In this document: in pieces, positions 1 through 20,000 of the stretch | Position numbering within the stretch: position 1 is the first letter of the stretch | Layout of the letters: the number at the start of each line of letters is the position of its first letter | Origin: Tricharina praecox | Taxonomy: Eukaryota | Assembly (NCBI RefSeq): GCF_024521635.1 | Contig: NW_026250441.1 | Coordinates: 170,865 to 190,864 of the forward strand | Length of the DNA: 20,000 nucleotides | Direction: 5' to 3' | Translations under genes and position numbers: made by a program | The notes under the pieces: generated by a model | What the model saw: the letters and a program-made list of their open reading frames with translations, nothing else | The model's database searches: none | Told to the model about the DNA's origin: nothing

Positions 1-3000
1 CCTGCGGAAAATCCGGGGAAGGGTAAATAGGGGGAGGGGGATGTTTCTATGAATGGAACGGAGAGGAGTGGAGCCAGACGGGTGTGCTCCGAAGCGATGA
101 GCACAGCCATGGATATGTTTATTTGCGCACATCTGCGACGGAATGGCCGATTGGAAGGTTCGGAGCGTTGTTTGTTTCGGTACGGGGGGTTCGTATGTAG
201 ATACGCTCGACATACTTACCGAGCTGCATTCCCATCGATGATCGGTTACGCAAGCAGCAGTCGAGAGGGAGTGTGCCGTATGCATATGCCCTGGAACCTG
301 GACAGAGCGGAGCACAAGCTGGGCGCCGTCAGACATTCGCAGTGGTCCCCCCCGCCCCGCCACACACAGCAAAATTCCACCAAAAATAATAATAATAATC
401 TATTTCGGCAAATTAAATCTATGAGGGATATTCTGGCCTCTATTTGCGCCTGACAAACGTGTGTATCTACTCTACTCGCACCCGTCGCGAGACTGTGGCG
501 ATGGCTAGTGCAAAGCTGCCCGCTCATTGGTCGGAGCTCATGTACCGGGATTATGTGGAGCGAGTGATATGCTATGGTGTACGCCGCCTGCCTTTCTAGA
601 CGTGCGGCGTGATGGGAGAGAGGTTACTTTACTGGAGGGGGCGTTTTTAGACCTGTGGTTGCTGTTATTGTCGACATACGCCAGACGGGATTCCCTGCGG
701 TCACAGTGGAGAGGCAGCTCTTCACTGGAGAGTGCGTACCTATGACATGTACATACCTAGGAATGATAGGTAGGTAGGTACGTAGACCACACCGGACGAT
801 TGCTTAGCTTCTTTGCCCTCCGCGATGACTGATTTGCGGACAGGAAGCTTAAAGATCGCGAGTAATCTGAGTGAAGCAAAGAAAGAAAGGGGGTCGATCA
901 TGGTACATGGTACCTATCGTGGGTTACGCCTACCGTTCGGTGCATGCTTCTATTTAGGTCAAGATACGGGGCTGACGACCTCGATTGGTGGTGAACGGTC
1001 CTATCGATTGGTCTGAACTTGGTGATGTTTTGCCGGGATTCTGTGGAGCTGAGCGGGGTAGATCTTGTATTACGCAGCTCTTACGAGCGAGTCTTGATGA
1101 CTCCATACGGAGCGCCCAGCGAGTGGTTGTATGGAACTGGCCGCGAAAGCGAGCGACTCAGCACTACGGTCTGGCCCATGGGAAAGAATCAAGGAGGCGG
1201 AAACAATCCTCTTGCAGCTCTCTCCCCCATCGCCCACGCCCCCTCCCCTCCCCTCCCCTCCCCCCGGTGCATCCCCGCTGTTGGTGTGATGCAGATACGC
1301 GCCTTGGATTCGACCAGATCATGCTGTATGGGGATAAGTCGTTGCCTACTGGAACGAGAAACTTATGCTCCTTTCTTTCAACTGGCTTGTTCCACACCAT
1401 CCCCTCCTCTCACCTCCCTTCGCTCCATGACCATGCTAGCCGGGATGAACCTCGCGTTCGATGGCAGACAAAGTTTGACTTGACATGACAGTTCTCGGCT
1501 TTCCGTTGTATTGGCTGTCAGTCCCCCTCGTCAATGTATGCTAGTCACCGTCCATGGATACAGCTTCGCCCAGCTCCGGTAGTTGCCCGGCATATGTATG
1601 TTTGGCGTGAACGTTTCCCAGACATCTCGCTCTCCTGGCCATCGCCCATGCCCCCCCAGTGGACGTGAAGCAGGTCAGGTCACAGCTTATGGCCGGAGTT
1701 GCGTGGGCGGTCGTGTGTGTGCAGCTCCCATGTACATGTATGTACTTCCTCGGGCAGCTCAACCTCCCCCGCCAATCCGCACACGAGGAAGATACTCTGG
1801 GCCATGATTCGTCTCAGCATTGCCGCGACGGACTTGGGCCATTAGGAGATGTTGGACTTTGACTCGGCGACATAGACGCCATCGTATCCACTACGTGCTT
1901 ACCTTCACTTACCGGAGGAATCCAGCAAGAGCTCGGTGATCTTCGGATCCCCGACTTGGGTGATTGGGTTGTAGCTTTCAGCCTGCGGAGTACCTAGTAG
2001 GTACTTGTGCTGCTGTTGAGAAACCCGATAAATGGCCATCATCCGTGGAGTTGGGGATATATGCGGATATGATCGCAGACTGACAAAGAGGGTTGTGGTA
2101 ACCGGAACGATGGGAAGGATCATCGCGAAAGCTACATACCTGTAGGTGAGACACTTCCAGCTTCACGGCTTGCTGAACTGCTGCTACTCTCTGGGAATTG
2201 GTCTGATCTGATCATATGTGCAACCGTTAACCGGACTTAACTGAAACATACAACGTAGTCAATCAAGATTCGGCCTGGCGCAGCGACAATTTCTCCAGCT
2301 ACGGACAGGATAAGTAGTTCTGGGGTTAGTAAGGGATAGACCGAAAATCGGGCTTCTGCAATGATGAATACAGCTGCCAAGTATCTTGTAAGATGGCCGT
2401 CGGATCTCCACTGACCGACTTGATACGGTTGTGATCGTGACAGATATTGCGCGGAAGTACTAGCTAGCCCGTGCCGTTCCGCAATTGCGAGCGCGGGTGG
2501 TTGTGCTGTCTTCGATGACCGAGGTTCCCCGTCAACTCCGCCCATTGAATGACTACGGGAAGACACAGAGTAGCCGAGCACAGTCATACGGCTGCAGTCG
2601 GTCGGGGATCTAGCCCAGCCGAGTGATCCGGCATGAAATTCATTTGCTCCGAAAATAAAAACCCTTTTCCACGCTGGGACGTAGATCAGCCAGTAACATT
2701 TCCCCATTTCTAAGATGACTCCCTGCAAGAAAGAACTCCACTCATTCGCCACCGCAAAATCTCCACCTGCCCTCCGGTGTCCCCGGCCAATCACAAAATC
2801 ACCATCCTCGGATCCCCTTGCTCGTGCGTCCGGATCCCCCCCAAAAAATTGTTGAGGCATTTCCGAATCCATCACATAATCTTTGTACACCTAGGCATAA
2901 AAAACCAAATCGTACCTCCGTACCGAGCACGGCCCTCGGACGCCTTATCGACAAGTCACCGACCATCTCCCCCCCACCCCCACAGACTCCGTCTCCACAT

Positions 3001-5919
3001 ACTCTCGGAGTTCACGCAATCAGAGACACGCAGCGAGCAGAGACCTCCGTGGGTGAGATCAACACATGCATCAGCAGCTATATGTAAGCTTGTAACCGCC
3101 GCCCTGTCGAGCACTGCCGCCTAGGCCAGCCTGGCAGCGCCCTGGAGTGTCCCGCGTGGTTATCACTTGACCTGTCAGACACGGGCCGGGGGGCCTCGGG
3201 CTCGCCGCTCTGTGATTGGTCGTAATAGACGGTAGCGCTGGCTGGTGATTGGAGCTGCTGGAGCGCGCGAGTGGGGGTTTCTGCCTTGCCTTGCAGCGTG
3301 CGGCTGGGTGCAAGTCGGCTGGAAATCGTACGCGGTCAAGGAATGAGGGGATGCGATGCTGAGTACTACACTGCACTACACTAACTATGCCGATGACTGT
3401 TCATACATGCCGCTTTCGACTCGGGTGTCTCGAAATTCAGTGTAGGGTGTTCTGTAACCGAAACGAGGCTAGGTTGCTGTGGGGTCGAGTGACATAGAGT
3501 GGGTAGTCCTTTTCTCTCAAACTCTGGCTATAATCCAAGTACGTGTGGGTACATTGAGAATGGGGTACTTACTTTTATCCTGTATCAAGATCTTCACTCC
3601 TTGAGCCTAGGATGGTGTCGCGTTGGGCTGGCTTGGTGGCCTGATAAACGCGGTGGCGAGTAAAAATGGTACATGGCGGTGTCAGTGATCAATGGCTACA
3701 TCTCGTCGTAATATGCGCATTCAGACCTAAAGGTCTTCATGCTAACACGTCCGATGATTACTTCTACTCACGGCTACAATTTTGCCTCCGTTTTGGCTCT
3801 GAAAAGCAATGCGTGAGTGGTGGTCGATTTCCCTAAGTGTAGTGAAGCGGGGCTCACGTCGATGAGAGCAGAAGCGGCGACACATCACTTTTATAACTTA
3901 CGAGAAAACCTTCTTTTGTAGAAGAACAACGGAGACTGCGTGTATCGAAGCCCGGGTCGCGCAGGAAGAGACGAGTCTAGGAAGAGTTTTCGGATGTTGC
4001 GCATACATTGTCACTCGATATAAGATGTCGCACTCCAGTGCAATATTTTCATATCAATAGCAAAGCCTAGATAAAGCCACTTGATCCTTTCACACTACAT
4101 CAGCTTTGAAGGAGCCCTTTGAGCTTCACTAGTCTATGTGCTTGCTACCCCAATCAGGGTTCACATGACTAACAACAAACAAGTATTAAACTAAAGTCAT
4201 AGATCGGCTTGAATTAGGGATCAGGTTCTACTCCCGATGTCCGCCTCAAAGTCTGACTCGCGTGAGCCTTTCGTATCAACCGTAGATCTTATCATGGACA
4301 TGATAAGACTACTGGCACTGTCCAAAGAGTTTTGAGTCTATTAGGCCAGAGCACCGAAGCAAGCCCATCATAGTATATCACTCGCACAAACCCCGTTGGT
4401 GAACATCCTCACCGGTTGCAAGCGGCAAAACGGTGGCCGGCGGCCTTTAGCAGGCCCTTCGGGATATAAAGTCGGCTCCAGCAAGGGCTGGGATAGTACG
4501 GCGGATAAGGACTTCGTCTGTGCAGAAAAAATTGATCGTATACAGTCCTCGGATATACGTCCCCAGCCATTACTTACTACTGGATACCGTTAAGAATTTG
4601 GAGCAGTGGCCGTCACAATTGATGAAGAACCATAGAATTCACAGTGATAATAAAAGCATGAAAGATTCATAACGGAAACGCGCACAGTCGGCACATCGGA
4701 GGACAGATACGATGAAGCGCGGAAGTGCGCGTAGACGCAACCTACACACCAAGAAATATGAAAGTGAGACTCCCAACACCCGAGCGGCCGTCAGAGAAAG
4801 TTACCCAAACCGGAGCACATCGCCCATCCAGAGAAGAATTTATCCCTAGCGCGCCCTAGTAGGGCCTATATTGCTGCGCGGCAGCCCTGTGTGCCTACCA
4901 GACCCTGTACAAACAGCGCTTGCCACATTGCTTGCTTGTCTGTCGAAGCCATCCGCCGGGGGTGGTGGTGGTTTTTTGGCATCAGCGATTGCGGGAGCAC
5001 TAGATGTCACTCGGCACGTGGCACGGTATTCGCTGCTGGTTTTTTGAAGGGTAATCTTCATTGCTTTCGACTGCGCTAGATCATGCAAGCTTACATATCC
5101 GCTTCCACCCGGCTGTTACCCCTAGCCGGTGCCCGCGAGCTCGATACCGGTTCCATATTGCGCTGCGCCTTGCCCTCCCCGTAAGTCAACCCTCCCTGCT
5201 CCCTCCCCGTCCAACCATCTCCATTTAACCCGACAGAAAGAAAGAGTTACAAAGCCGGCGCTTTCTATCCATGATACGGGCTGGAGGCATTGTCGGTGTG
5301 TGTCCCATTCAATAGATACCGCCGGATCGCTAGTTGTGACATGTGGAACCCGGAACTTTCTCCCAGCTCCCCTCGCCGGTTGCGTGGCCTAGGTAAGAAG
5401 GATGTAGTTGACCTCTAGACCATTCCGTGATGGATACTTGAATTCGAAGATTTTAAGGTGGTGGGGGCTCCGCTGCGCGGTGGTCAATAACGTAGGGGTA
5501 GAGTACACCATCACCGACGGAAAGTTAGATAGCTAGTATACCTATCCAGCAGTTCAACGTCAGCACAGGACGGACGTATTCCGCATCCCCAAATCCCCAA
5601 ATCCCCAAATCCTCTTAGCCACCAACCGTAGGACCATAAGATCGCGGGCAAATATCTAGTACATGACTATAGCTAGTACGTAGGTATATCTTCGCCCCCG
5701 GCTAAACGAGTGAGGGGACACCGCGCGGTCTCTGCTGCGCGACGCTGGCACCACAACGCAGTGGCCTCGATGCTCCCGTTCCTACATCCGGTACTTCCGG
5801 TGTCCGGACTCCGTGGAGATTCGCTTCGGCTAGTTCAGGTGCGATTTCTCGGTCTTGCTCCTGCCGCCCTCCTCGTTGTCAGGCCCACATCCAAAACAAC
5901 CGAGTTGCATCGTCGGCGA

Positions 5920-6054
5920 GGTTACAAATATCTGCTCACGGTCAAGCAGGAGGCAGACGAAGTAGTAGCGGAAACCTAAAAGTGGCTTGCGGCTCGTTTC
6001 TACTACTTGAAAACAAGACATGTCGTGACTGGGAAACATCTAGCATGGACCAAG
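5920..6054 (+). mobile_element. Degenerate relic resembling the C-terminal part of a fungal LINE (Tad1-like) ORF2
   Basis: Reading through the TAA at 5977-5979, the frame of ORF 5710..5979 gives GYKYLLTVKQEADEVVAET*KWLAARFYYLKTRHVVTGKHLAWTK. This resembles, from memory, the K-x-LA-x-RFYQLKTGH-x-x-TG-x-YL-x-WTK segment preceding the terminal zinc finger of fungal LINE ORF2. No RT or endonuclease is recognisable nearby. Confidence 0.5.
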
Positions 6055-6819
6055 AGCCCCGTCACAGCTCCGAACACGTAGTTAGCCATCTGCTGCTACC
6101 TAGGTGAGTGTCGCGAGGAGATCTTGGGGCGTCTCTGTGGCCTCAGCGGTACCGGTGTCCTCGCTGTTTGAAGAGTCCGCGTTGCCGAGTCAATCAGAAG
6201 CGAAGGATCTTGGGTTCCCGCGCCGCCATTTCTCTTCGCTCCCGTACGAGTCTACCACATGTTAACGAGGAACAGTGAGTCCTCCCACGCCCCCGACGAC
6301 CACCGCGTAAAACGCAACTTGAAGGGGTTCCCTCCGCTTCCGCATTCAAAATCCATGCCGGGAGTGCTGAGAAAACGCGGGAGTTTGGTGTCCAGGAGGA
6401 GAGCCCGAGGTCCCGAACGGTTCCCGTTGCGTGAACACTGCCAACTCCACCGGGCCGTCAGTCACCGCCACCCAAGAAGGACCTCCAGTGGAAAGACACC
6501 TCGCCGCAGGAATTCATCTGCGTGGTCTCGTTTTCGATTTTAGTTAATATGCATCTAGGCCACGGCTTAACTGAAAACTCGCAGCTGGCCTGTACGACTC
6601 CAGACGTGCTGCATAGTAGCGATACATTGGGCTGAAATGAATGAAGTCGACAGCATCTCTTCAATCAAATCAAAGCGAAGCGATACAAAAGACACGAACC
6701 GCAAATCCCAGCTCTTCTTTCCCCGACTAGACAACAAAGACCGACTCGAAAGCACATCCGCGATGTAGAAAAAAGTAAATCAGCCATCAGTTGCCACCAA
6801 TCACGTGCACTCACTCTAA

Positions 6820-9091
6820 CTACGCCAACCCAGCCCACCCAGCGGACCACTCCCTCAACCTTTTGCCCCAAACATAAATAGGTATACCGATAAGCGCAAA
6901 ACCACCAAATATACCAGCGTAGATTCCAAACGCGCCGTCGTATCCGCACGCATTGATGAAATCGACAATTTTAAAGTTCATGGCAAAACCGACGACGTTG
7001 CGGAGGGCGCAGACCATTACGAGAAGAGGACTATTTATTGATATTTGTTAGTGAATGAGCCGAATAAGGGAGTGGGGTGTGTACCCTGCCCAGCGAGGGT
7101 AGCATTCAACTGCGTAGACCGAGAGGGAGGTGTTCAGTGAGAGAAACCCGAAATTGAGGAAAAATGCACCAAGTAGGGAGATCGCCCAATGGTACTGGTC
7201 GGTGTGGGCGCTGGACACTCCGTATATGACACTGCCGATAACGGTGAAGATTGAAGGGAGGATCAGGGAGGGGAGACGAGACTCGGGCTGGTAGAAGAAT
7301 CAGTGCTGGAGTGCGGGCGATCAGGGAGCGAGAACTACGTACCTCGTGGATACCGCCATTTTTCTTTGCCATATGCTTCGAGATCCAATCCATACCCCAG
7401 CCGGATAGAAAGAACGATAAAAAGCAGGCGGGTAGCATCGCCAAGGTCGACAGCCCCAGATTATCTACAGTCCACGGCCCACCCTTCTCCCATACCATAA
7501 GGGGCTGTGCATAAGTCATTAAAGAACTGATCGATATCGCGATACAGATCGAGTTCAAGATCACCACCCAGGCGATATTGGGAAGAAAAGCGGCTTTGAG
7601 CATATGTCGGTAGCAGGTCCAGCAGTTGGCCCAGTTGACGTTGCCGTGGGAAAACTTCATGTCATTTGCCCAGCTGCGTGGTTTGTACCCGCTGTCCGAC
7701 CCAAGAGAGGGGGATCGCGCTACCATGTTGGTTGTGCTGTTGGTGTCGGTGACTTTGCCGATGACGCGGATGTTTCCGTACGCATCGGTATCGATGAGTT
7801 CGCCATCTATGGGAGTCAGCTAATGAATGCCAAACTAGTACTGCCAGGGGATACAGACCGATTTGCTGGATGGCACGAACATATCGTGTCTCCGGGACGA
7901 AGAAGATCATCATAACAGTTCCGAGTGCAGAGAGGATGCCAAAGATTCCATAAAGCCACCTCCAGCCGACCATGTTGACGATCTTCGAAGACATAACTCC
8001 AAATAGGTAACTGATAGCCGCAGAGAAAGTCCACATAGCCCCGATCGCCTATAAACATCAGGATCGCCCGCAAACGTCCTCGCCCGGGAAATCGGAATGG
8101 TACTTACGTTGCCTCTCTGATGAACGAAATAAACGTCATGCAGCACCAATGGACTCAACGACTCGAAACTTCCCGCACCAATTCCCATGACGCATCGCGC
8201 GGCCAGATGATGATCAAAGTTCTTCGAGAGCGCAGCCCAGATCATGCACGCAGTGGTGAGAGTCATCAGGATGCACAGGATTGCGCGGCGTCCAATTGCC
8301 AGGCAAAGGGGGACGGTGATAAAGTTGGACATGCCCATGAAGAGGGAGGGAAGCGAGCCAAGAAGAGAAATGGTCGCGATTGATTTGTAGCCGCCTGGCG
8401 GAGGCTTGGTGAGGTCGATTCCGGGGGGAAGGTCCGGCATTGACATTCCGCCGAGCTGCCCTGCACGAGGAAGAAGGGAAAAGTCAAGGTCGATGCCAGA
8501 GGTTGAGCGGGCTTTGACTGCCGGACCAATGATTACGGCAGGCTCTAGTATATTTTTAGCATAGATAATGATACGATTGATGGACCGGGATAGAAAACAT
8601 GCCTCCCGTGTTCACAACCGCGGGTTTTGAGGAACCGGGAACGGGTGCGGACAATGCGGCCAACACTTCGACGGGATCTCCATACTGTAGCTGCAGGATA
8701 GGAATGATGCCACCGATACTTGCAACCGCGGTCAATCCAGCGACACCATCTGTGTTGTATCATAGTTGGTAAGCCGTTGTAGTGCAGTTGGTAGGTGCCG
8801 GAAACTTACAAAGAATCATAGTGGCGAGGATCATATGTTTCCTCCACATGGGGAGGTTAAGGGGATCTTTTTCAAGTTCGTCAGCTATCCGTATCATCAT
8901 CACTGACCCCCACCACTGCGCATACCATTCGGATCATCAGTTGGCACGGGAATGAGCCTCAAAGTATTGTTCTCATCGTACAGCCTAACGGTCCCTAGAG
9001 CCTGCTCTTTCAGCTGCTCAACAACCTCCGTATGGACCGCCGTTGCGTCAAACTTCTCCATCGAGGAGCGATTCTTGCGGTGGCCACTCAT
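6820..9091 (-). CDS. Major facilitator superfamily (MFS) transporter, fungal DHA1-like; 8 exons, 624 aa
   Basis: Manually spliced exons: 9091-8926, 8866-8810, 8749-8603, 8544-8108, 8048-7859, 7806-7343, 7287-7085, 7030-6820 = 1875 nt, open through to the stop. Introns are 52-60 nt, most with CTRAY-like branch sites. Motifs: LIPVPTDDPNDPLNLPMWRK, AIGRRAIL, ARCVMGIGAG, DVYFVHQRG, GWRWLYG, VPETRY, GIHEPESRL, IPIYVWGKRLR, with many hydrophobic TM segments. Confidence 0.93.
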
Positions 9092-11837
9092 GTTTGCTTG
9101 TACGTACTGTCAGAAGAAGAAAATAGCGAAAGAGGAAATGCTTTTTATTTTCTCGTCAAGAGAATATTAGGAAGGCAAGAGAACGAACGGATGACTGGGG
9201 GTGCCGAAAGAGAATCGCCTTCCACTGGCTGCATTTTGAACTGTTGACTCGGACTATTCGGCTTTGCGGGGGCATGCATATTTAATCTGGGGGTGGCCAT
9301 AGCCATGAGGTTTGACAGCGGCACTGGTGAACGGGTGGCAAAGATAGCTGGCAGCTTCTGAGAATGTACTCTGAGAGTTAATATGAAGGGAACCTGCACG
9401 TAGGAAAATCATCGGATCGTGTGGTTGAGATAGTGATGGCTTTGGGTTCGGCTGTTTGAACTATAACCACGCATAGCATGGCCCGGACTGGAGACTGAAT
9501 GGAGATATTGACTGTGGGAAGAGCTGGAGGATTCATTAGCCATCACATACAGTAGTAGTTATAGATATTCAGAGTCAACTATTAAACTCTCGGTAACGCA
9601 GCAAGTTAAGGCGAGAACCTTTTATTCGCGTGTCATCTAACGGTCATTACTATGTAACGATCTCGAGACGAAAACGTTCTTCAGACTCAGCGATCAGTTG
9701 TTTTGACGCCCGTCGCTCATCAACAGATTGCCATCAGCCTCTCCGAATGGACATTCAATTACTTCGCTGGCTCCCTCGTCTAGCTTGCAATTTCATCGCT
9801 TGCGCCGTGCGGCCACATTGGTTAACGTTCTGCAGGACCTCCATGATCTGCCGGGCCCGCTTATCCAGAATTCTCGCCCCCGCTTTTATTGTACACACGG
9901 TATGACTGAATCTGTTATTCCGCGAGTACAATGTTTCTTCTGCAGTTTCGAGAAGGCTTTCAAGATAGAATCAACCCGAACATCCACACCTTACTCCCAT
10001 CCCCAGCAACGGAAACACTACATGTTTAACATCTCACGCCTTCCTACGACGACAACGTACTTAGAGGGATATCGCAACTACTTGCTTGCTGCCTGTACCA
10101 GTATATTCAACAGCCCTTGATGACGATGCCTGGCAGGGTTCGGCTACGGATCCGGTGCACAGGATTGCGACCGCAACCGCCGCCCGGAAGGTCGATGGGT
10201 GAGGTTGGGGAAGTACAAGATCACCTACTTGGGAGGCAGGCTCGGTTCGGCGGGGGATCGGTGATGATATGAAAGCGAATCTCGTCGTATGGAGGATTAA
10301 CTCAGGGATCGATAGTATCGGCGAAACGTGGGGTGTTTTTCGCCGACTGGGTGCCAAGGTAGGTTTTGGGTTAGGTAAGTGATCGCTGGGAAGCGTGGTT
10401 TGCACTGCATGTCGGGATTTTAGTTTCTTCGAATGCCGGTCGGAGAGAGAAGGCGGAATTGCGCTGTGTAGATTCGTCTAAATGGAAGGGGGGATATGAC
10501 ATGAGGAACACTATTATCGCCTATATATCACCTCCCAACGGGTACACCTACCGGTAAAGTCGAAATTGAGCTTGGACGGGGCGCCACGCCAAACGCAGCA
10601 TTTACGTTTGGCGACGGTCGACGGTCGACGACCGCAGTGTTTTCCCCGTTCAGTTTTAATGGATGGAGGTGGTGATGTGTAATTTGTACTGAGCCAGAAA
10701 CGACTGAACGATGTTGCTTCGATTGCTATTAAGGAGTGGTTTGCAACCCCCGGTCGCAGCGCATGAATTGGTTCGCACCACTTTTAGATGATAGCGAATA
10801 CTGCCACAGAAACAGTGCGCACGAAACACAAAGCGTCCGGCAAAACGAAACGCTTTTAGAGAAACTAGAGGTCATCGACATGGTAGAGCTTCCTTACGAT
10901 CGCAACCTACATATCCAGCGGGGGGCCCCGCCGCCACTGGCCAGAACGGGGCACGGTCGGCGAAATAAAAAGACCATTTCGGGTTTCAGAAGAAAGAAGC
11001 TGCACAGGAGTTGAAACGAGGGAGTAGACCATGATGAAACGAACGAAGTGCGGTTGTGGGAAAGCCGATACCGATGTAGTAGCCAGCCGCTTCCGCACTG
11101 AACATTCCCAGGCCCAGGCTTTTTGACACAGGACAGGACCGGGCTAGTCTGACAACTCATCGCCCCGGACGAGACCGTGTCGCCGGGCCCTCAATCGTCT
11201 TCCGTTCGGATGGACTGCTTCCAGGCCTACCCAAAGCTTTATGAATGCCCCATCGTCGGTCCATTCCAGATCACCAGTGGATGGCATCTTGTCGGGGGAA
11301 CTTGTCATCACCGTTTGCCTCCAGCGCGTATTGAGGTCCTTCCGCGTTTGACTCGTTCTGACGGGGCGCCACGCTGGCGTTCCGCGAATCCGCGCCTTCA
11401 TGTTCCCTTAGCTATGGCACTCTGCATGACGGTATCAGTACTGGAATCTCCGAGTCTCCCATGCGCTACCAATCTAGATGGTTCTGTGTATCCGCACACC
11501 CAAGAGCCGACCATCGCACTTGACCGAGAGTCCAGTCCAGAGCATGCCGGCGAGAATGCGCGAGTACGCGCAAGATTATGCCCGCGAGCTTGTCAGAGAG
11601 CTCTCCGGAGAGTATCCCCGAAAGTATGCCAGCGCAGGCATGGGAGTTTTCTGTCGGGACAGAACAGTGTTAGGGCCCGGTGACAGAGTGCCCTCCAGGG
11701 CGAGGATTTGCTGGACTAGAGCAGTCAGTATCCATCTGTTTCCCTCGACCAGACATTCGTTGGGATCCCCAAGGTACACGTCTTGTAACCTGGGTGTGAC
11801 GTTGTTTGCTGGTCGGCCATGGGCAATGCGGTTCCTT

Positions 11838-11945
11838 CGAGAACTTCCATTGCACGTCCAGCGACGAGAAACTTTGGCACGCGACGACGAGAAATTCAAT
11901 TGCACGCAACGGCGAGAACTTCTATTGCACCCCCGGCGACGAGAG
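11838..11945. repeat. Degenerate ~25-bp tandem repeat, about 4 units plus a partial
   Basis: Units start with cgaga at 11838, 11865, 11888, 11913 and 11940: cgagaacttccattgcacgtccagcga / cgagaaactttggcacgcgacga / cgagaaattcaattgcacgcaacgg / cgagaacttctattgcacccccggcga / cgagag. Confidence 0.65.
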
Positions 11946-11998
11946 GAGAAAGGAGGAGACAAGAAACTCTATCATATTTATGTACACAATTATAACTC

Positions 11999-12628
11999 TC
12001 AAGGCCTTCCGTGGTTCTTGAAAATTTCCTTCGGCAATACATGTGTAAGAGGTTCAACAACTTCTATGACAACTTCCATCCAATTTTCCACTACCGTGCG
12101 ATCATTTTCTTCATCGGTCCAACTTGCCTCCATCATTTCATCTGCTGTGTGCAGCTGTTGCCTCAGTTACTCATCCAACTCTCTCAGTTGGAGAACACTT
12201 TTGAGACGGATAGTATCCGTCTGCGGTATCTCTTCAGGTACCACCAATACTCTCTCAACAGTCTTATAAATAACGAAGCATGTAGCTGCCATCGCTGTTG
12301 GGTAAGAACTTTCAAGCTATGGTCCAATTAGAAAATATGCCGGAATAGTAGAAGATGTTTCCGAGCAAATCTATAGAAAATTTGTAAAACATATTATTTA
12401 TGAAAAGAAAGGAGCTTTGAATATGCCTGCAATGGCATCTAAAAAGTCTCATCAAAGCTAGGTGTGCGTTTTCTAACTTCATAGATCTCTAGGGCGAGCA
12501 ACTCTTGGATGGGTCTGGAAATTCACAAATTTTCAGATACTTTGTATACTGAACCTATAGGTGATTGGCACAGAAGTCATTTTGTGCCTTCTTCGCTTTT
12601 GCATTGCGGTGCTCTGCTTGTCGCATTA
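11999..12628 (-). pseudogene. Possible 3' remnant of a spliced gene of unknown identity, truncated by the LTR nest
   Basis: After a CTAAT...CATAG acceptor (AG at 12318-12317), frame 12316-11999 reads LESSYPTAMAATCFVIYKTVERVLVVPEEIPQTDTIRLKSVLQLRELDE*LRQQLHTADEMMEASWTDEENDRTVVENWMEVVIEVVEPLTHVLPKEIFKNHGRP*, with a single internal TAA (12169-12167). The region is AT-rich and no family is recognised. Confidence 0.35.
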
Positions 12629-12923
12629 TGCGGGACTGGAACAGTTTCGGCACGTCAGAGTTGTGAGACTGAAACGGTTTCGGGATGTCAGAGTATTGAT
12701 TGATATCGAGTATAGAATAAAAGTGAGGGATTTCGATAGTTCACAGCGGCATAATTTTGAGGGGTATCGTCGGTAGTTGTTCAGTGTTCTGGTTGTGCTG
12801 GTGTTGAGTTTTTCCGTGACACTAGTCCAGCAACCATATAGTCTACACCTACACCTAAGCACGTGATCGGAAAACTGTGTCGTAGGGAACTCTGTTGCAA
12901 ATGCCCTTTGGGTGATGCTCTGG
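12629..12923 (-). mobile_element. Partial LTR of family B (3' part), with a duplicated 33-bp terminus
   Basis: The reverse complement of 12662-12923 aligns with ~17940-18198 (shared gcaacagag, atcacgtgct.agg, tgtgaa.tatcgaaatccc..acttttattctatactcgata, cagtctcaca). 12629-12661 is a 27/33 identical tandem copy of 12662-12694. Confidence 0.85.
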
Positions 12924-13376
12924 TGTAACAGAACGGTCGGGCTGGACTCCAGGTAGCGGAGATGGGTGGGTAGGTGAACAGGAACTGGGTTGGACAAGGG
13001 CGAGGCAAGATTGGGAGAGGAGGCAAGACAGGACTCAGTGCAGATGGCAACCGAGAAACAAGGGTGAAGACAGGAACTACGGCACAGATGGCAGCTGAGG
13101 TGAGAACTGAGGTAACAGTGATTGAATCAACAAGCTGTTGCGTGAAGAACTAAGTACACAGAGGCGACGGCCCATTTATATAGCAGAACCTTCACTTCTT
13201 CCCGCAACGTGACAATGACCGTGGGTGTGTGCCACTCCCTGGGAAATACACCTGGCCATCACCCCGCTTCAGTGACTCATACCCTTCGCAGTCGGACTAA
13301 CCCTGCTTCCTGCACACAGCTCCAATCCTCTGCGACTCACTCCTGCGCTATCACTGCTCCTTGCAAACAGCCCCAA
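12924..13376 (-). mobile_element. Partial LTR of family A (3' LTR or solo), interrupted by element A
   Basis: Begins TGTAACA at 12924. Its reverse complement is colinear with 13488-13936 (shared cccacggtcattgtca, gttgcgggaagaagtg, ctatataaa, tcaatcactgttacctc, cgctacctggag...cccgaccgt), roughly 80% identical by eye. Confidence 0.92.
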
Positions 13377-13936
13377 TGTCACGGCTCGCGATGGAATGGC
13401 GAAGGGAGGGTCGGCACAAGGATCGGGAGAGTTGGGGGGCAGTGCAGAGGCAGTGCACCGGCAGTGCAAGGATGAGTCGCAGAGGATTTGGGGCTGTGTG
13501 TAGGGAGCAGGGATAGCGGAGCAATCAGTCGCAGGAGATTGGGGCTGTGTGCAGGAAGCAGGGGTAGTGCGGCTGCGCAGGGTATGAGTCACGGAAGTGG
13601 GGGTACTTGCAAGGTGGATTTCTCAGGGTCTGGCACACGCCCACGGTCATTGTCAGGTTGCGGGAAGAAGTGGAGGGTTTCCTATATAAACGGGCCGTTG
13701 CCCCTCTGTACTTAGTTCATCACGCAACAACTTGTTAATTCAATCACTGTTACCTCTGTCCTTGCCTCGGCTGCCGTCTGCGCCGTAGTCCTTGTCCCTG
13801 CCTCTGTTCTCAGTTGCCGTCTGCACTGAGTCCTGCCTCACCTTGTCCCCTGAACCCGTCTTGCCTCTACCGAACCCAGAACCCGATCCCCAGCCCGGCT
13901 TCGCTACCTGGAGCCTTGCCCGACCGTGCCGTTACA
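13377..13936 (+). repeat. 5' LTR of element A (560 bp)
   Basis: Termini TGTCACGGCTC...GTGCCGTTACA (9/11 inverted match). TATA at 13683. Internal repeats: gcagtgca x3 at ~13439-13468 and a ~53-bp tandem pair at ~13474-13580. The 3' boundary is confirmed by the inverted copy ending at 12924. Confidence 0.9.
13683..13690 (+). promoter_or_regulatory. TATA box of LTR A
   Basis: TATATAAA, conserved in the inverted LTR copy (tttatata at ~13175-13182). Confidence 0.7.
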
Positions 13937-13938
13937 CT

Positions 13939-13947: not shown

Positions 13948-13975
13948 CCCCTATCTCTCCACCTAGCGAACTACC

Positions 13976-15367
13976 ATGGCCACCAACACTCAGGTACCCG
14001 GCGTCCCCCAGCAGGACAAAGTACCAGTGGCACCCCCCTTCTACCGAGAAATTCCTGCCGCTATCTACGAACAACTCGAGATCATCGTCAATCATGATGT
14101 ACCCGCCGATGATGCAACCCTGATGGGGTTGTACAATGAATTCAGAATCCTCACCCGCGCAATCACCCAGTCCCCAATAGCCGTACCGACCTGGCGATTC
14201 GACGACCTTGAAGAACAACTTGCTGACGCCCGCCGCATCGCCAACCGCCTCGCAACCGTCGAAACCCAACCTCCAAGACGCGCTGAGCGCGTCCCAGAGC
14301 CAGCCATGTTCGACGGAACACGCGAGAAACTGGAAGGGTTCGTTGCGCAACTTTGACTCAAGCTGTACAGCGACCCAGCCCGTTTCCCAATTCCAGCACT
14401 CCGAATGGCCTATGCCTTCAACCGCTTGGAAGGCCGCGCCCAAGCCCAGATCCTGCCGTACATCGAGAATCACAACATCACCCTCACCGACGCTGATGCG
14501 ATCATCACACTCCTGAACAACGCATTTGGTGACCCTGACCCAGCGGCCACCGCTCGAGCCAAGCTACACCACTTGAAACAAGGCAATAAGGAGTTCATCT
14601 CCTACTTTGCGGAATTCCAGATGCTTGTCTCCAAGCTCAATTGGGACGAGCATGCGAAACCTGACGCGCTGCGAGAAGGAGTATCCATCGAACTCCACCA
14701 TCAACTTGTGGGCCGTACTCAGGGCCTCAACTACGATGAGTTTGTGGCACTCTGTCAACGCCTTGACTCCGAGCCGCGTGCCCTCCAACTTCGTGAGGGA
14801 CGCCGCACCACCAACCCCCCTCGGCAGAGTAGCGCCCCACACCCAACGGCTCCGCTCAGGCACACCACCTACAACACCATGCCCGCGACGACCACTGCCA
14901 CAGGAACGGCCCCCGGAGCCATGGACTTGAGTGCCAATAGCCGCAGGATCCCAGACCAAGAGCGTGCTGCCCGACTCCGCGAAGGCCACTGCCTGTACTG
15001 TGGGGGAAGTGGCCACATGGCCAGGCACTGCCCCAACAAGAACCGAAATCCGTTCCGAGCAGCTGTGGCCCGGCTGGAGTCAGCCCAGCCCACCAACACC
15101 ACCCCAACTCACACCTATCACAACTGCAACCAGGATTGCGGCGAGACCTCCCAGCAGTCGGGAAAAGCCTGGACCAACAACCGCTTGATGGCACTGTTGT
15201 TGGTCGTACCCAGGATAAGTCTTTGTCTCCTATGTCCCCTATTTTTCGTTTGTCTAGTCTCTCAGTGTCAGGAATGGTTGTGGAAGAATCATCAATGGAA
15301 GGAAAACATCTTGTTGTATTGTGTAACCTTTCGTTTGGTGACAAAACTATTGCCACGCATGCGCTGA
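13976..15367 (+). pseudogene. gag: gag of element A, one in-frame stop
   Basis: ORFs 13976..14356 and 14405..15367 share a frame and are split by TGA at 14354-14356. Motifs: PEPAMFDGTREKLEGFVAQL, LKQG..FISYFAEF, PGAMDL and the zinc knuckle CLYCGGSGHMARHC (from 14990). The ancestral end is probably near SGKA (~15170). Confidence 0.92.
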
Positions 15368-17508
15368 TCGACTCTGGGGCAACCGGAATTGCATTTGTAG
15401 ACAAAGACTTCGCCCGCCATCACCACCTACCCCTCGTACCCCTGAAATCCCCGCGAAGTCTCGAAGTCAACGATGGCCGTCCCATCGAGTCAGGCGACAT
15501 CACACATGTTGCCACCACCACCCTGTCCATACAGGAACACCACGAGCAAATCCCTATGTTTGTCACCAAACTAGGCCACTACCCCGTTGTACTCGGAATT
15601 CCCTGGATGGACCTCCACGATGTGGCCATCCGGTTCAGCTCCCGAACCCTCACCTTCGGCTCCCAATACTGCACAGCCAATTGCGATGCGGTGCCCACAG
15701 TTGCACATGGAATCACCACCGACCCGCCTGACGTATCCACCTACGCTCTCGCGTCAAAAGCAGCTCAGCAAGAGCCAGCGGTAAGCGCGGGGGCCGGCGA
15801 CATCGTGGCCCGCTACATTACGTCTCCCCCAAGGAAGAATCACCAAGAATGCACTAACCTTTCAAGGGAAAGCACAGTCAGAATCTCAGCCTTACAGATG
15901 GAGTCATTCCAAGAACTGGTCAACAAGGAGAGCCTCACGATTTTCAACACCACGCTTGCCGAGGTCAACGGTGCACTGGAAGGAAACAAGGACCCCACGG
16001 CAAATATCCCTCACGAATACCAAGAATTCCTACCGCTGTTCTCTGAAGCACTTGCTCAGAACTTGCCCCCGCACCAACACTACGGCCATAAGATTCCACT
16101 CAAGGAGGGATTTACGTCACCATACGGACCACTGTACTCACTTTCGAAAACGGAGCTTGTCGCACTGAAGGAATGACTTGACGACAACCTCAGCAAAGGT
16201 TTCATCCGTGCCTCTTCCTCTCCAGCAGCATCGCCAATCCTGTTTGTCAAGAAATCGGATGGCTGCCTACGCCTGTGTGTGGATTACAGGGGCCTGAACG
16301 AAGGAACAATCAAGAATAGGTACCCACTCTCACTTCTCCAAGAAACTCTGATGCGGCTATCCGGGGCAAAATACTTCACCACCCTGGATATCCGCGGTGC
16401 CTACAACCTTGTGCGGATGGCGGAAGGAGAAGAGTGGAAAACTGCCTTCCGGACACGCTACGGGCTCTTCGAATCCCTCGTCATGCCCTTCGGCCTCACC
16501 AACGCCCCTGCCGACTTCCAAGCTCTGATCAACGATGTGCTACGCCCGTTCCTCGACGACTTCTGTACCGCATTCATCGATGACGTCTTCATTTACAGCG
16601 GATCCTTAGATGAACACCGGAAACATGTCAGGAAAGTACTTCAGGCCTTATCAGCAGCCGGTCTACATCTCAAACCCGAAAAATGTCATTTCCACCAGAC
16701 AGAAGTCAAGTATTTGGGACTGATCATTACAACAAACGGGATCAAGATGGACCCAGCGAAAGTCTCCTGCATACTGGAATGGGAGGAGCCGAGTACCGTC
16801 ACCGATGTGCAATGCTTTCTGGGATTTGCGAACTTCTACCGGCGATTCATCCAAGACTATTCCAAGGTGGTATCCCCATTGACAGCATTGACCAAGAAGG
16901 AGGATGGAAAGTATGTTCCCTTCATGTGGGGACCGGAACAGCAGAAAGCATTCGACGAACTAAAAACAGCATTCACCTCGGCCCCGATCATCCTGCACTT
17001 CGACTACGATCGGCAGATAGTAGTGGAAACTGATGCCTCCGACTACGTCTCTGCCAGAGTCCTATCTCAGTACACCAACGAGGGAATCCTGCACCCAGTG
17101 GCTTTCTATTCCAAGAAACACTCCCTCGCAGAATGCAACTACGAGATCTATGACAAAGAACTCCTTGCAATCATCCGCGCCTTTGAGTAGTGGAGACCAC
17201 CTCTGGAGGGCGCTCCTCACCCCATCCAAGTCCTAAGCGGCCACAAGAATCTGGAGTATTTTATGACAACGAAACTACTCAACCGACTACCAGCTCGATG
17301 GTCAGAGTTCCTTTCCCGTTTCCATTTCAAGATTGTCTACCGACCAGGCAAAGCGGGAGGAAAACCGGATGCACTGACCAGGAGGTCAGGAGACCTCCCC
17401 AAAGAAGGGGATGAAAGACTGCTTGCCAACCAGCAGGCAGTCCTGAAACCGGACAACCTACCCGAAGAGCTCCGGTTGGCAGCAACCAACACACCCGAAC
17501 AAGACCGT
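15136..17508 (+). pseudogene. pol: pol of element A: aspartic protease, reverse transcriptase, RNase H; two in-frame stops; no integrase
   Basis: One frame throughout: ALIDSGATG (15361), [50 protein letters not shown] (FIDD at 16573-16584), [46 protein letters not shown]. Stops are TGA 16174-16176 and TAG 17188-17190. Confidence 0.96.
15160..15166 (+). other. Candidate -1 ribosomal frameshift heptamer G GGA AAA
   Basis: X XXY YYZ pattern correctly phased in the gag frame. The pol ORF (15136..) is in the -1 frame and open at this point. Confidence 0.7.
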
Positions 17509-18198
17509 TGTGACACCCCGATAGGTATCGGAGGTCACGACGGTCCCAAGAAATGTGATTAGATAGTTCGGGTGATTAGAATAGAGTTCCAAGCCGAAAG
17601 GATAGTTAGAAGCGATCGAGGACAAGATAGGAAGGAGAGAGCAAACGGATTCCAGAGTCTAGACAGTGATCGGAGATGCGGGAGATCGGGATAACAGTCC
17701 AGAGGACTTTGAGATCTCCGATCATAGGGCCCCATAGTAGGAACTCCGATCCAGGAAAAAACTGTTATGACGAGAGAATCGAACATCGACCGATGGGGGT
17801 AGAGAACTTCGAGCGAAGAAATCTGGCGGCGCATGAGGGAGATAATTGCTCGGAAACTCCAATCTATCTTGGTCGCGTGGTGCTTACCACCTGCCTAGTC
17901 GAGAAGACTATCCGAAGAGAGCTGACGACGACTCGAGGCTAGGCCGCGGAACTTTGATGCAAAGGAAGCAACAGAGCTACGTTAGGCCGCACTCTAGAGA
18001 AATCACGTGCTGAGGATCGGCACGGCTATAAGTCGAACCGAGCGGGCAACCGAACCAAACTACAATCATCGCACCGAACAAACCATCGAAGAAACCTCCT
18101 TTAGCTTATTCCGTTGTGAATTATCGAAATCCCGGACTTTTATTCTATACTCGATAATACCATAGACTCCGACGACCTGAACTCGTTCCAGTCTCACA
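17509..18198 (+). repeat. 5' LTR of element B (690 bp)
   Basis: Termini TGTGACAC...GTCTCACA (7/8 inverted match). The 3' boundary is supported by the inverted homolog ending at 12662, and the gag ATG follows at 18237. Confidence 0.85.
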
Positions 18199-18236
18199 CT
18201 ATAATCTTAAGGTTACAGTCACCGATTTCTAACGAA

Positions 18237-19431
18237 ATGTCCTCCTCAAACCTCGACATGCTCCGCCTCGAACTTCCTCAGACCCTGAGCAATGCGCTCG
18301 TTAGCATCCCGCAAGCATCCGAAACCGTCGAAGTACGAAACCCGGCAGCCTGGCTCAGGCTGATGAACCACCAATACCAAACGGCACAAAGAGACCTGCG
18401 CCAACTTTACCAAGCATGCGATCAGAAGTTCAACGAAGAGGACTCCCGAATGCAGGAAATCAGAAGGAACTACGAACAACTCTGCGATGGGGTCAAGTAT
18501 GTGTACAACCTCTACGCTCACAATGCCGAAATGAATACAGAATGGCTTCGAACCGAGCTCTCAACGGTAGCGAACGCGACGCACGCCCTGAGCAGCGACG
18601 TATGGGCAGTCATTCGAGAACGTAACCAGAAAGACGAAGACAACCGCGAACTGAAAAGCGTCGCAAACGCTCGGCTACAAGATGCCATCGTGTTCCTCGC
18701 AACGGCGCAAGTCGAACAACGCAGGGAGCAAGCGGTGTATAACCGCAACGTGGAAATATGGGCAGGGAAACAGGAAGAGAAGGCAGAATACCTCTACAAA
18801 GAGCAACAGCGAATCAAGGAAAAAATCGCTCGAGCAGAGAAAAAATTGAAGGCTGTAGAGGTAAGGACAGGAAAGGCGAAGGAAAAGGCCCCAGAGTGGG
18901 TAAACACCACACCAAGAGGAGGATCGCGGGCAGAAAGATCAGCGACAAGGGAAACTCCGGCAGGTGCAGGAATGTCCCCTCCTCCTCCACCCCCAAGACG
19001 TCTGGTGACTAACCTTGGAGGTGATCCCTCGGGTGAGGAACCATTGGATGATGACGATTCCATCCCCTTGCCGCGTCGTTCGCCGCCCCGTCACCGAAAC
19101 GCTCCACTACCAAGAGAAAACGACGAAGATGAAGAGAGTCGCTTCACTCGGATCATCGCTGCTGCCGTCTCCGCATCGAACCCGAGGGCCATCAAGCTTA
19201 AGATGAAAGAGCCCAAGTCGTTCGATGGCAAGTGTCACAGTTCAGAAATCCTGACCTTAAGTAGCTACTGGGATGATGGTCTTCAGCCATCAAAATACCT
19301 TTTGGTCGAGTGGTATAGTACTTTCCCAGTGTACTTTATTACAGCAAGCAAAGGACAGCCTTCCGTCCATGGTGGGACTCAGTCGAAGAATATCTTGAGT
19401 TCCACCCAGAGACAAACGAGCAGCAGAAGAT
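18237..19431 (+). pseudogene. gag: gag of element B with a long coiled-coil-like N-terminus; disrupted by an insertion and a deletion
   Basis: Open from 18237 to KLKMKEPKSFDGK. Removing 19233-19348 restores FDGK-QRTAFRPWWDSVEEYLEFHPETNEQQKI, typical of the start of a retrotransposon capsid domain. Confidence 0.82.
19233..19343. mobile_element. 111-bp solo-LTR-like insertion with a 5-bp target site duplication
   Basis: GCAAG(19228-19232)-TGTCACAG...TTATTACA-GCAAG(19344-19348). It has TG...CA ends, is AT-richer than its flanks, and its excision restores the gag frame. Confidence 0.88.
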
Positions 19432-19869
19432 ATGGACCTGGGACTGGTCGCGTACATCGATGACCTCCTCATCTATGCTAAGACGCACGAGGAGCATGAC
19501 AAGATAGTCATCGAGGTACTAAAGAGGTTGTAAGAAAATAAGTTGGCAATCTCACCAGAGAAGTGTGTCTGGTCGACAGGCAGAGTCGAGTTCCTAGGAT
19601 ACGTGATATCCCAAGATGGAATTGAGATGGCTAAGGACAAGGTGGAATCTGTGCTCTCGTGGGAGGCGCCGCGGTCCCTGAAGGAAGTACAAGCCTTTCT
19701 TGGGTTCGCCAATTTTTACAGGCGCTTCATCAAGGATTTCTCAAAGATCACGAGACCCTTGACCGAGAGCACAAAAGAAAAAGGGAAGGATTGGAGATGG
19801 ACAGGAGAAATGGAACTGGCCTTCGAGGAGCTGAAGTCTAGGTTCACCACGGCACCGATTATCGGACAC
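19432..19869 (+). pseudogene. pol: C-terminal half of a Gypsy reverse transcriptase (largely missed by the ORF track)
   Basis: MDLGLVAYIDDLLIYAKTHEEHDKIVIEVLKRL*ENKLAISPEKCVWSTGRVEFLGYVISQDGIEM...[26 protein letters not shown]...FTTAPIIGH. YIDD is at 19453-19464 and there is a TAA at 19531-19533. Confidence 0.95.
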
Positions 19870-20000
19870 TTAGGGTTAGGGTTAGGGTTAGGGTTAGGGT
19901 TAGGGTTAGGGTTAGGGTTAGGGTTAGGGTTAGGGTTAGGGTTAGGGTTAGGGTTAGGGTTAGGGTTAGGGTTAGGGTTAGGGTTAGGGTTAGGGTTAGG
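19870..20000 (+). repeat. Telomere (TTAGGG)n
   Basis: 21 perfect TTAGGG units plus TTAGG to the window end, with the G-rich strand running 5'->3' towards the terminus. Confidence 0.99.

Follow-up and report, generated by a model that had tools for sequence, protein, structure and literature searches.

The 20,000-nucleotide stretch of DNA analysed here (the window) finishes in a perfect array of TTAGGG repeats, which starts directly behind the interrupted reverse transcriptase (RT) frame of a Ty3/gypsy retrotransposon. This retrotransposon (element B) is itself inserted in another one (element A). The arrangement probably arose by terminal truncation of a chromosome, followed by telomerase-mediated de novo addition of a telomere directly on non-telomeric DNA. 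We infer the participation of telomerase from the anatomy of the junction. The features involved are listed below in the order in which they occur.

13488 to 13937, plus strand: right arm of an inverted repeat, LTR- or leader-like and containing a TATATAA box, upstream of the element A gag.
13967 to 17509, plus strand: internal region of element A with gag, protease, RT and RNase H, containing frameshifts and stops (Pfam, ORFs).
17510 to 18198, plus strand: 5′ LTR of element B, 689 bp, TGTGACAC...GTCTCACA, with TG...CA ends (contig depth, loose contig ends, sequence).
18199 to 19432, plus strand: leader and gag-like ORF of element B, the ATG being at 18237 (ORF, Pfam, contigs).
19233 to 19344: 112-bp insertion in the element B gag, which other copies do not have.
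19433 to 19869, plus strand: pol fragment of element B, comprising the C-terminal part of the RT (YIDD onward) and the linker to the first RNase H residues.
19870 to 19871, plus strand: TT common to the repeat and to the Phe codon (TTY) predicted from relatives rather than from the copy's own ancestor; putative 2-nt seed.
19870 to 20000, plus strand: telomere array, (TTAGGG)21.8 (TRF, 12-mer probe, sequence).

TRF identified the final 131 bases (19870 to 20000) of the window as a single array with a period of 6, 21.8 copies and the consensus TTAGGG, with 100% matches and 0% indels. The 12-mer TTAGGGTTAGGG, searched with at most one mismatch, has 20 matches, all of them on the plus strand between 19870 and 19995 and none elsewhere in the window. 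Shuffled sequences gave a mean of 0.06 matches, and none of the 200 shuffles reached 20. Within the window, this probe found no telomere repeats proximal to element B. The hexamer TTAGGG is the canonical telomere repeat of Pezizomycotina, and complete fungal telomeres typically have a length such as the 21.8 copies found here. The G-strand of the array runs 5′ to 3′ toward the window end, and the array reaches the final base. An outward G-strand is the orientation expected of a right-hand chromosome terminus.

The junction reads ...GCA CCG ATT ATC GGA CAC TTAGGG..., and it is translated as ...FTTAPIIGH followed by L(GL)n. The frame before the array is ...ELKSRFTTAPIIGH, and L(GL)n is the translated repeat. 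The Ty3/gypsy RT frame of element B is therefore cut after ...APIIGH, at the boundary between RT and RNase H. In the Pfam search, 19399 to 19869 matched RVT_1 positions 146 to 205 of 205 (E 7e-13), and this match ends approximately 90 residues short of the junction. The frame of element B stops exactly where RT_RNaseH_2 begins in element A. The RT frame meets the array directly, and neither variant repeats nor an LTR nor a subtelomeric or donor-end spacer intervenes. In element A, the corresponding site (16981 to 17004) reads GCC CCG ATC ATC CTG CAC TTC GAC, that is APIILHFD, with which its RT_RNaseH_2 match begins. The sequence, the translation and TRF thus bear out two points of the preliminary description, namely that the RT frame runs straight into perfect TTAGGG repeats with no variants, LTR or spacer, and that the homologous site of element A is APIILHFD with CAC TTC GAC. 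The flank on which the array sits is internal sequence in intact homologues: element A and all of the related metagenome loci that extend to this point (47/47) continue as coding sequence. The junction sequence and the lack of a spacer are direct observations.

The extent of the missing part was estimated from P0004, a 1074-aa metagenome polyprotein that is the closest full-length relative of the element B pol. A gap-free alignment matches the 112 residues that precede the junction to P0004 residues 288 to 399 at 79% identity, and the junction corresponds to residue 399 of 1074. The distal domains of P0004 are RNase H (376 to 505), integrase H2C2 (633 to 690) and rve (707 to 805), with SH3 (922 to 982) and a chromodomain (1008 to 1045) further on. 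RNase H, integrase, chromodomain and 3′ LTR are all absent from the element B copy. The alignment to P0004 and its domain order indicate that about 675 codons of the element B pol and the 3′ LTR are gone. The truncation point relative to homologues is directly visible. The rest of element A and whatever lay distal to it are also lost. Among Ty3/gypsy traits, element B has the RT C-terminus and is devoid of the RNase H, and of the integrase behind it, that its closest relatives possess. Given its canonical 5′ LTR, element B is therefore a normal integration that lost its 3′ part later.

The first TT of the array coincides with the Phe codon expected at this position, as had been proposed earlier, and the relatives of element B agree with this claim. 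The protein set consisted of 121 sequences, 120 database matches plus element A of the window, of which 105 matched a regular expression for the motif. Phe follows the ...H/Q position in 99 of these 105 proteins and another residue in six. The motif forms among the 99 are AHF (78), GHF, THF and SHF (4 each), RQF (3), NHF (2) and four that occur once. At the DNA level, 80 related metagenome loci share 37 to 68% protein identity with the element B RT. The codon count covers 47 of them, 33 having been excluded for a match that ends short of query residue 112. The codon after the CAC position is TTC in 33 of the 47, TTT in 8 and another codon in 6, which makes TTY the codon in 41/47. The closest relatives are 79% identical in the protein database and 68% or less among the metagenome loci. 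An exact or degenerate DNA pattern for FTTAPIIGH had 0 matches in the metagenome contigs, so that neither the junction nor near-identical copies occur in that contig collection.

The bases of element B ahead of the expected TTY codon are ...ATCGGACAC. Judged from the relatives, the original sequence was very probably CAC TTY, in which case the array would open with a TT of retained and not added DNA. If TT is the seed, the true breakpoint putatively lies between 19869 and 19871. The overlap ends at TT because the relatives go on with C/T GAC, whereas the array goes on with AGGG. A null distribution was obtained from every window position and the six repeat registers, in which an overlap of at least 2 nt was found in 5.8% and of at least 1 nt in 24.6%. 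The 2-nt overlap by itself is weakly non-random (p ~0.06), that is, marginally unlikely by chance. A TT seed is plausible and fits the mechanism, without being strong evidence on its own.

The structure of element B was examined with contigs (Logan) of four public runs (X16, X1, X3 and X7) out of the 19 that contain part of the stretch. Contigs were aligned to 15000 to 19895 without the repeat-masked 19862 to 19895. The numbers aligned were 11,792 for X16, 714 for X1, 2,126 for X3 and 2,245 for X7, most of them at least 95% alike, and elements A and B are both very abundant families in the four runs. Contig depth rises to 2–5 times that of the flanks across approximately 17460 to 18279. Depth peak and loose ends are seen in all four runs, and loose ends occur at both LTR borders. 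Other copies diverge before 17510, where eight X16 contigs share a purine-rich ...GGGAGGGGAGATGG, and again after 18198, where 15 X1 contigs continue differently. Both retrotransposon families are present at 95–99% identity or better in soil/air metagenome runs X1 to X15 from several studies. Judged from the transposable element sequences and not from the locus, the host, or close relatives of it, would seem to occur widely in soil and air samples.

The gag-like ORF of element B matches no Pfam family, and a search of 5.8 billion proteins yielded no homologue of comparable length. The ORF (18237 to 19232) is rich in charged, coiled-coil-like sequence, and the element is very high-copy in the soil/air metagenome runs. 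The 112-bp insertion behind it is seen from contig joints that skip 115–122 bases in all four runs (e.g., 19232 to 19355) and from loose ends at 19344. Elsewhere, the same piece is found on the opposite strand beside the LTR borders (X1 joints 17507/19246 and 18198/19319), so that the insertion is itself a repeated fragment. An internal deletion, flanked on either side by loose ends in X1, X3 and X7, joins gag to mid-RT at 19432/19433, and the RT frame contains an in-frame TAA at 19531 to 19533. The internal deletion and the in-frame stop indicate that this copy was already dead. Element B was dead before, or independently of, the telomere event. Its RT shares 47.7% protein identity with that of element A, and the two elements accordingly belong to different families.

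The LTR of element B begins exactly where element A breaks off, between RNase H and integrase, which places element B within the pol of element A. This nesting can be read directly from the window. In element A, one X16 contig has a loose end at 16999, at the homologous TTC, and this was taken as a coincidence. Upstream of the element A gag lies an inverted repeat with arms at 12923 to 13376 and 13488 to 13937, each of about 450 bp, 79.6% identical and separated by a 111-bp spacer. Each arm carries a TATATAA box directed outward, and the right arm leads to the element A gag. The inverted repeat is probably two transposable element copies arranged head to head. A 125-bp segment on the minus strand (12662 to 12786), 137 bp past the left arm, matches the 3′ end of the element B LTR (18072 to 18198) and ends exactly at the LTR terminus.

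An MFS/sugar-transporter gene with introns was predicted by Pfam on the minus strand at approximately 7665 to 8611, about 11 kb from the telomere, and it is the sole non-transposable-element Pfam signal in 1 to 13600. For one exon of this gene, the identity is 100% to a Tricharina praecox protein, with half of the query covered, and 58% to one of Ascodesmis nigricans. The window is accordingly of pezizomycete origin. A tandem repeat with a 25-bp period (11838 to 11930; 3.7 copies, 72% matches) lies in overlapping ORFs that have no Pfam family. A search against Rfam at gathering thresholds identified no RNA family in the window.

Based on these observations, the history of this chromosome end may be reconstructed as follows. 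Before the tip was lost, the subtelomere would have contained nested Ty3/gypsy elements, with element B integrated in the pol of element A. Element B would already have decayed by then through its internal deletion, the 112-bp insertion and the stop codon. A break within element B, or one farther out from which erosion or resection proceeded into the element, would have exposed a 3′ end that finishes in ...GGACACTT. The terminal TT may then have paired with the telomerase RNA template and been extended by AGGG(TTAGGG)n. The distal loss would have comprised the RNase H, integrase, chromodomain and 3′ LTR of element B, the rest of element A and the old telomere. In this reconstruction the TT seed and the terminal position of the array are deductions. 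The suggestion that the end arose from a break inside the element followed by telomerase addition is supported by the internal truncation, the perfect outward array, the absence of a spacer and the TTY of the relatives. The process is an already-known one, of which this is an ordinary instance, and no new mechanism is revealed.

Family B is extremely high-copy in the runs, as the 11,792 contigs from X16 illustrate, and this favors an assembly artefact or misplacement, in which the junction would come from a chimeric read or would be the real junction of another element B copy attached here via repeat collapse. Such an origin is nevertheless unlikely. Two private markers near the junction, the 19233 to 19344 insertion and the 19432/19433 deletion, are both missing in other copies and help to place it uniquely. 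In addition, assemblers do not create a junction on a 2-nt overlap alone, and the array has the orientation of a right-hand end.

The window stops inside the array, so it might have been cut within an internal TTAGGG tract left by break repair or end fusion, with other DNA beyond 20000. Internalised telomere tracts are indeed reported in Pyricularia (PMC8381367). However, the same paper calls internal tracts extremely rare once they exceed four repeats, whereas the window has 21.8 perfect copies, and the orientation suits a terminus, which makes an interstitial telomeric sequence improbable.

The inverted repeat with its flanking fragments of the element B LTR lies 6.4 kb from the telomere and may have been left as a scar by a fold-back or a breakage-fusion-bridge cycle that was stopped by telomerase healing in element B. 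If true, the healed end would be the last step of a larger history of end rearrangement. We consider this improbable as well. The arms are 79.6% identical, compared with the identity of at least 95% among most element A and B contigs, the left arm is without 4.1 kb that is present in the right arm, and the sequence past the element B LTR end differs between the arms.

The telomere might also have been captured from another chromosome end, either copied by break-induced replication or joined by end joining; uncapped ends of the blast fungus have been documented to take both routes (PMC7367193). The donor chromosome end would read ...CACTTAGGG. Break-induced replication needs homology and normally imports the donor subtelomere, whereas here the repeats directly follow RT coding sequence. 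A bare telomere tract could have been attached in the correct orientation by end joining, which would be indistinguishable from healing but is less parsimonious, and capture by either route is very improbable.

Elements that prime on chromosome ends by target-primed reverse transcription are 5′-truncated and capped at their 5′ side. Element B has the opposite configuration, with its 5′ end proximal and its 3′ part missing. Telomere-associated retroelements do exist in fungi (PMC7367193; PMC12857005), but a programmed or element-driven junction, in which family B or a derivative would be telomere-attached or telomere-targeted (as MoTeR/FoTeR or Penelope-like elements are) or would contain a recurrent breakpoint, is extremely improbable, since element B belongs to the LTR elements, has a canonical 5′ LTR and sits in the pol of another element. 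The preliminary description had favored a random break over a programmed junction, and this agrees with the finding that none of the 80 related loci, all of them distant relatives with 37–68% protein identity, contains (TTAGGG)3 or its complement.

Tip loss and healing by telomerase is thus the reading we prefer for this end. It would provide one clean pezizomycete example of tip loss and re-capping inside a nested retrotransposon cluster, and it fits the short-seed rule of the blast fungus. The junction probably marks a true contig end, which would be an aid to assembly quality control. A strain-specific junction of this kind could also be a marker of chromosome-end turnover among isolates.

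In telomerase chromosome healing, the RNA template anneals to the outermost few nucleotides of the broken end, which is then extended (Melek and Shippen, 1996, as cited in PMC7367193). Human neotelomeres at terminal deletions are ascribed to the same healing mechanism (PMC4427916). The mechanism proposed here is identical to this general one and is deduced from the junction anatomy. Growth from seeds of 1–4 nt was reported for 19 of the 24 de novo telomeres described in Magnaporthe oryzae, where truncated retroelements were re-capped likewise (PMC7367193). Terminal truncation with de novo telomeres is also reported as common in Pyricularia strains, including nested truncations (PMC8381367). 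The present junction resembles those of M. oryzae (Rahnama et al., 2020, PMC7367193; Rahnama et al., 2021, PMC8381367) in that TTAGGG repeats lie directly on non-telomeric DNA, which there includes truncated retroelements and rDNA, with no subtelomeric spacer. The events in M. oryzae, however, were watched as they arose and were verified by clones and long reads, whereas here a single assembled pezizomycete junction is described. The truncated elements also differ. Those of M. oryzae are telomere-targeted non-LTR MoTeRs, which are 5′-truncated and capped on the 5′ side (PMC7367193), while a nested Ty3/gypsy LTR element is cut on its 3′ side here.

Element B resembles fungal Ty3/gypsy chromoviruses, in which RVT_1 is followed by RT_RNaseH_2, in that its closest full-length relatives carry an integrase and a chromodomain and its LTR has TG...CA ends. 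Unlike intact chromoviruses, it is a dead fragment that lacks RNase H, integrase and 3′ LTR. It is also unlike MoTeR/FoTeR and Penelope-like elements, which are non-LTR or endonuclease-deficient and have their 3′ end on proximal telomere repeats and their 5′ end distal, whereas element B has a proximal 5′ LTR.
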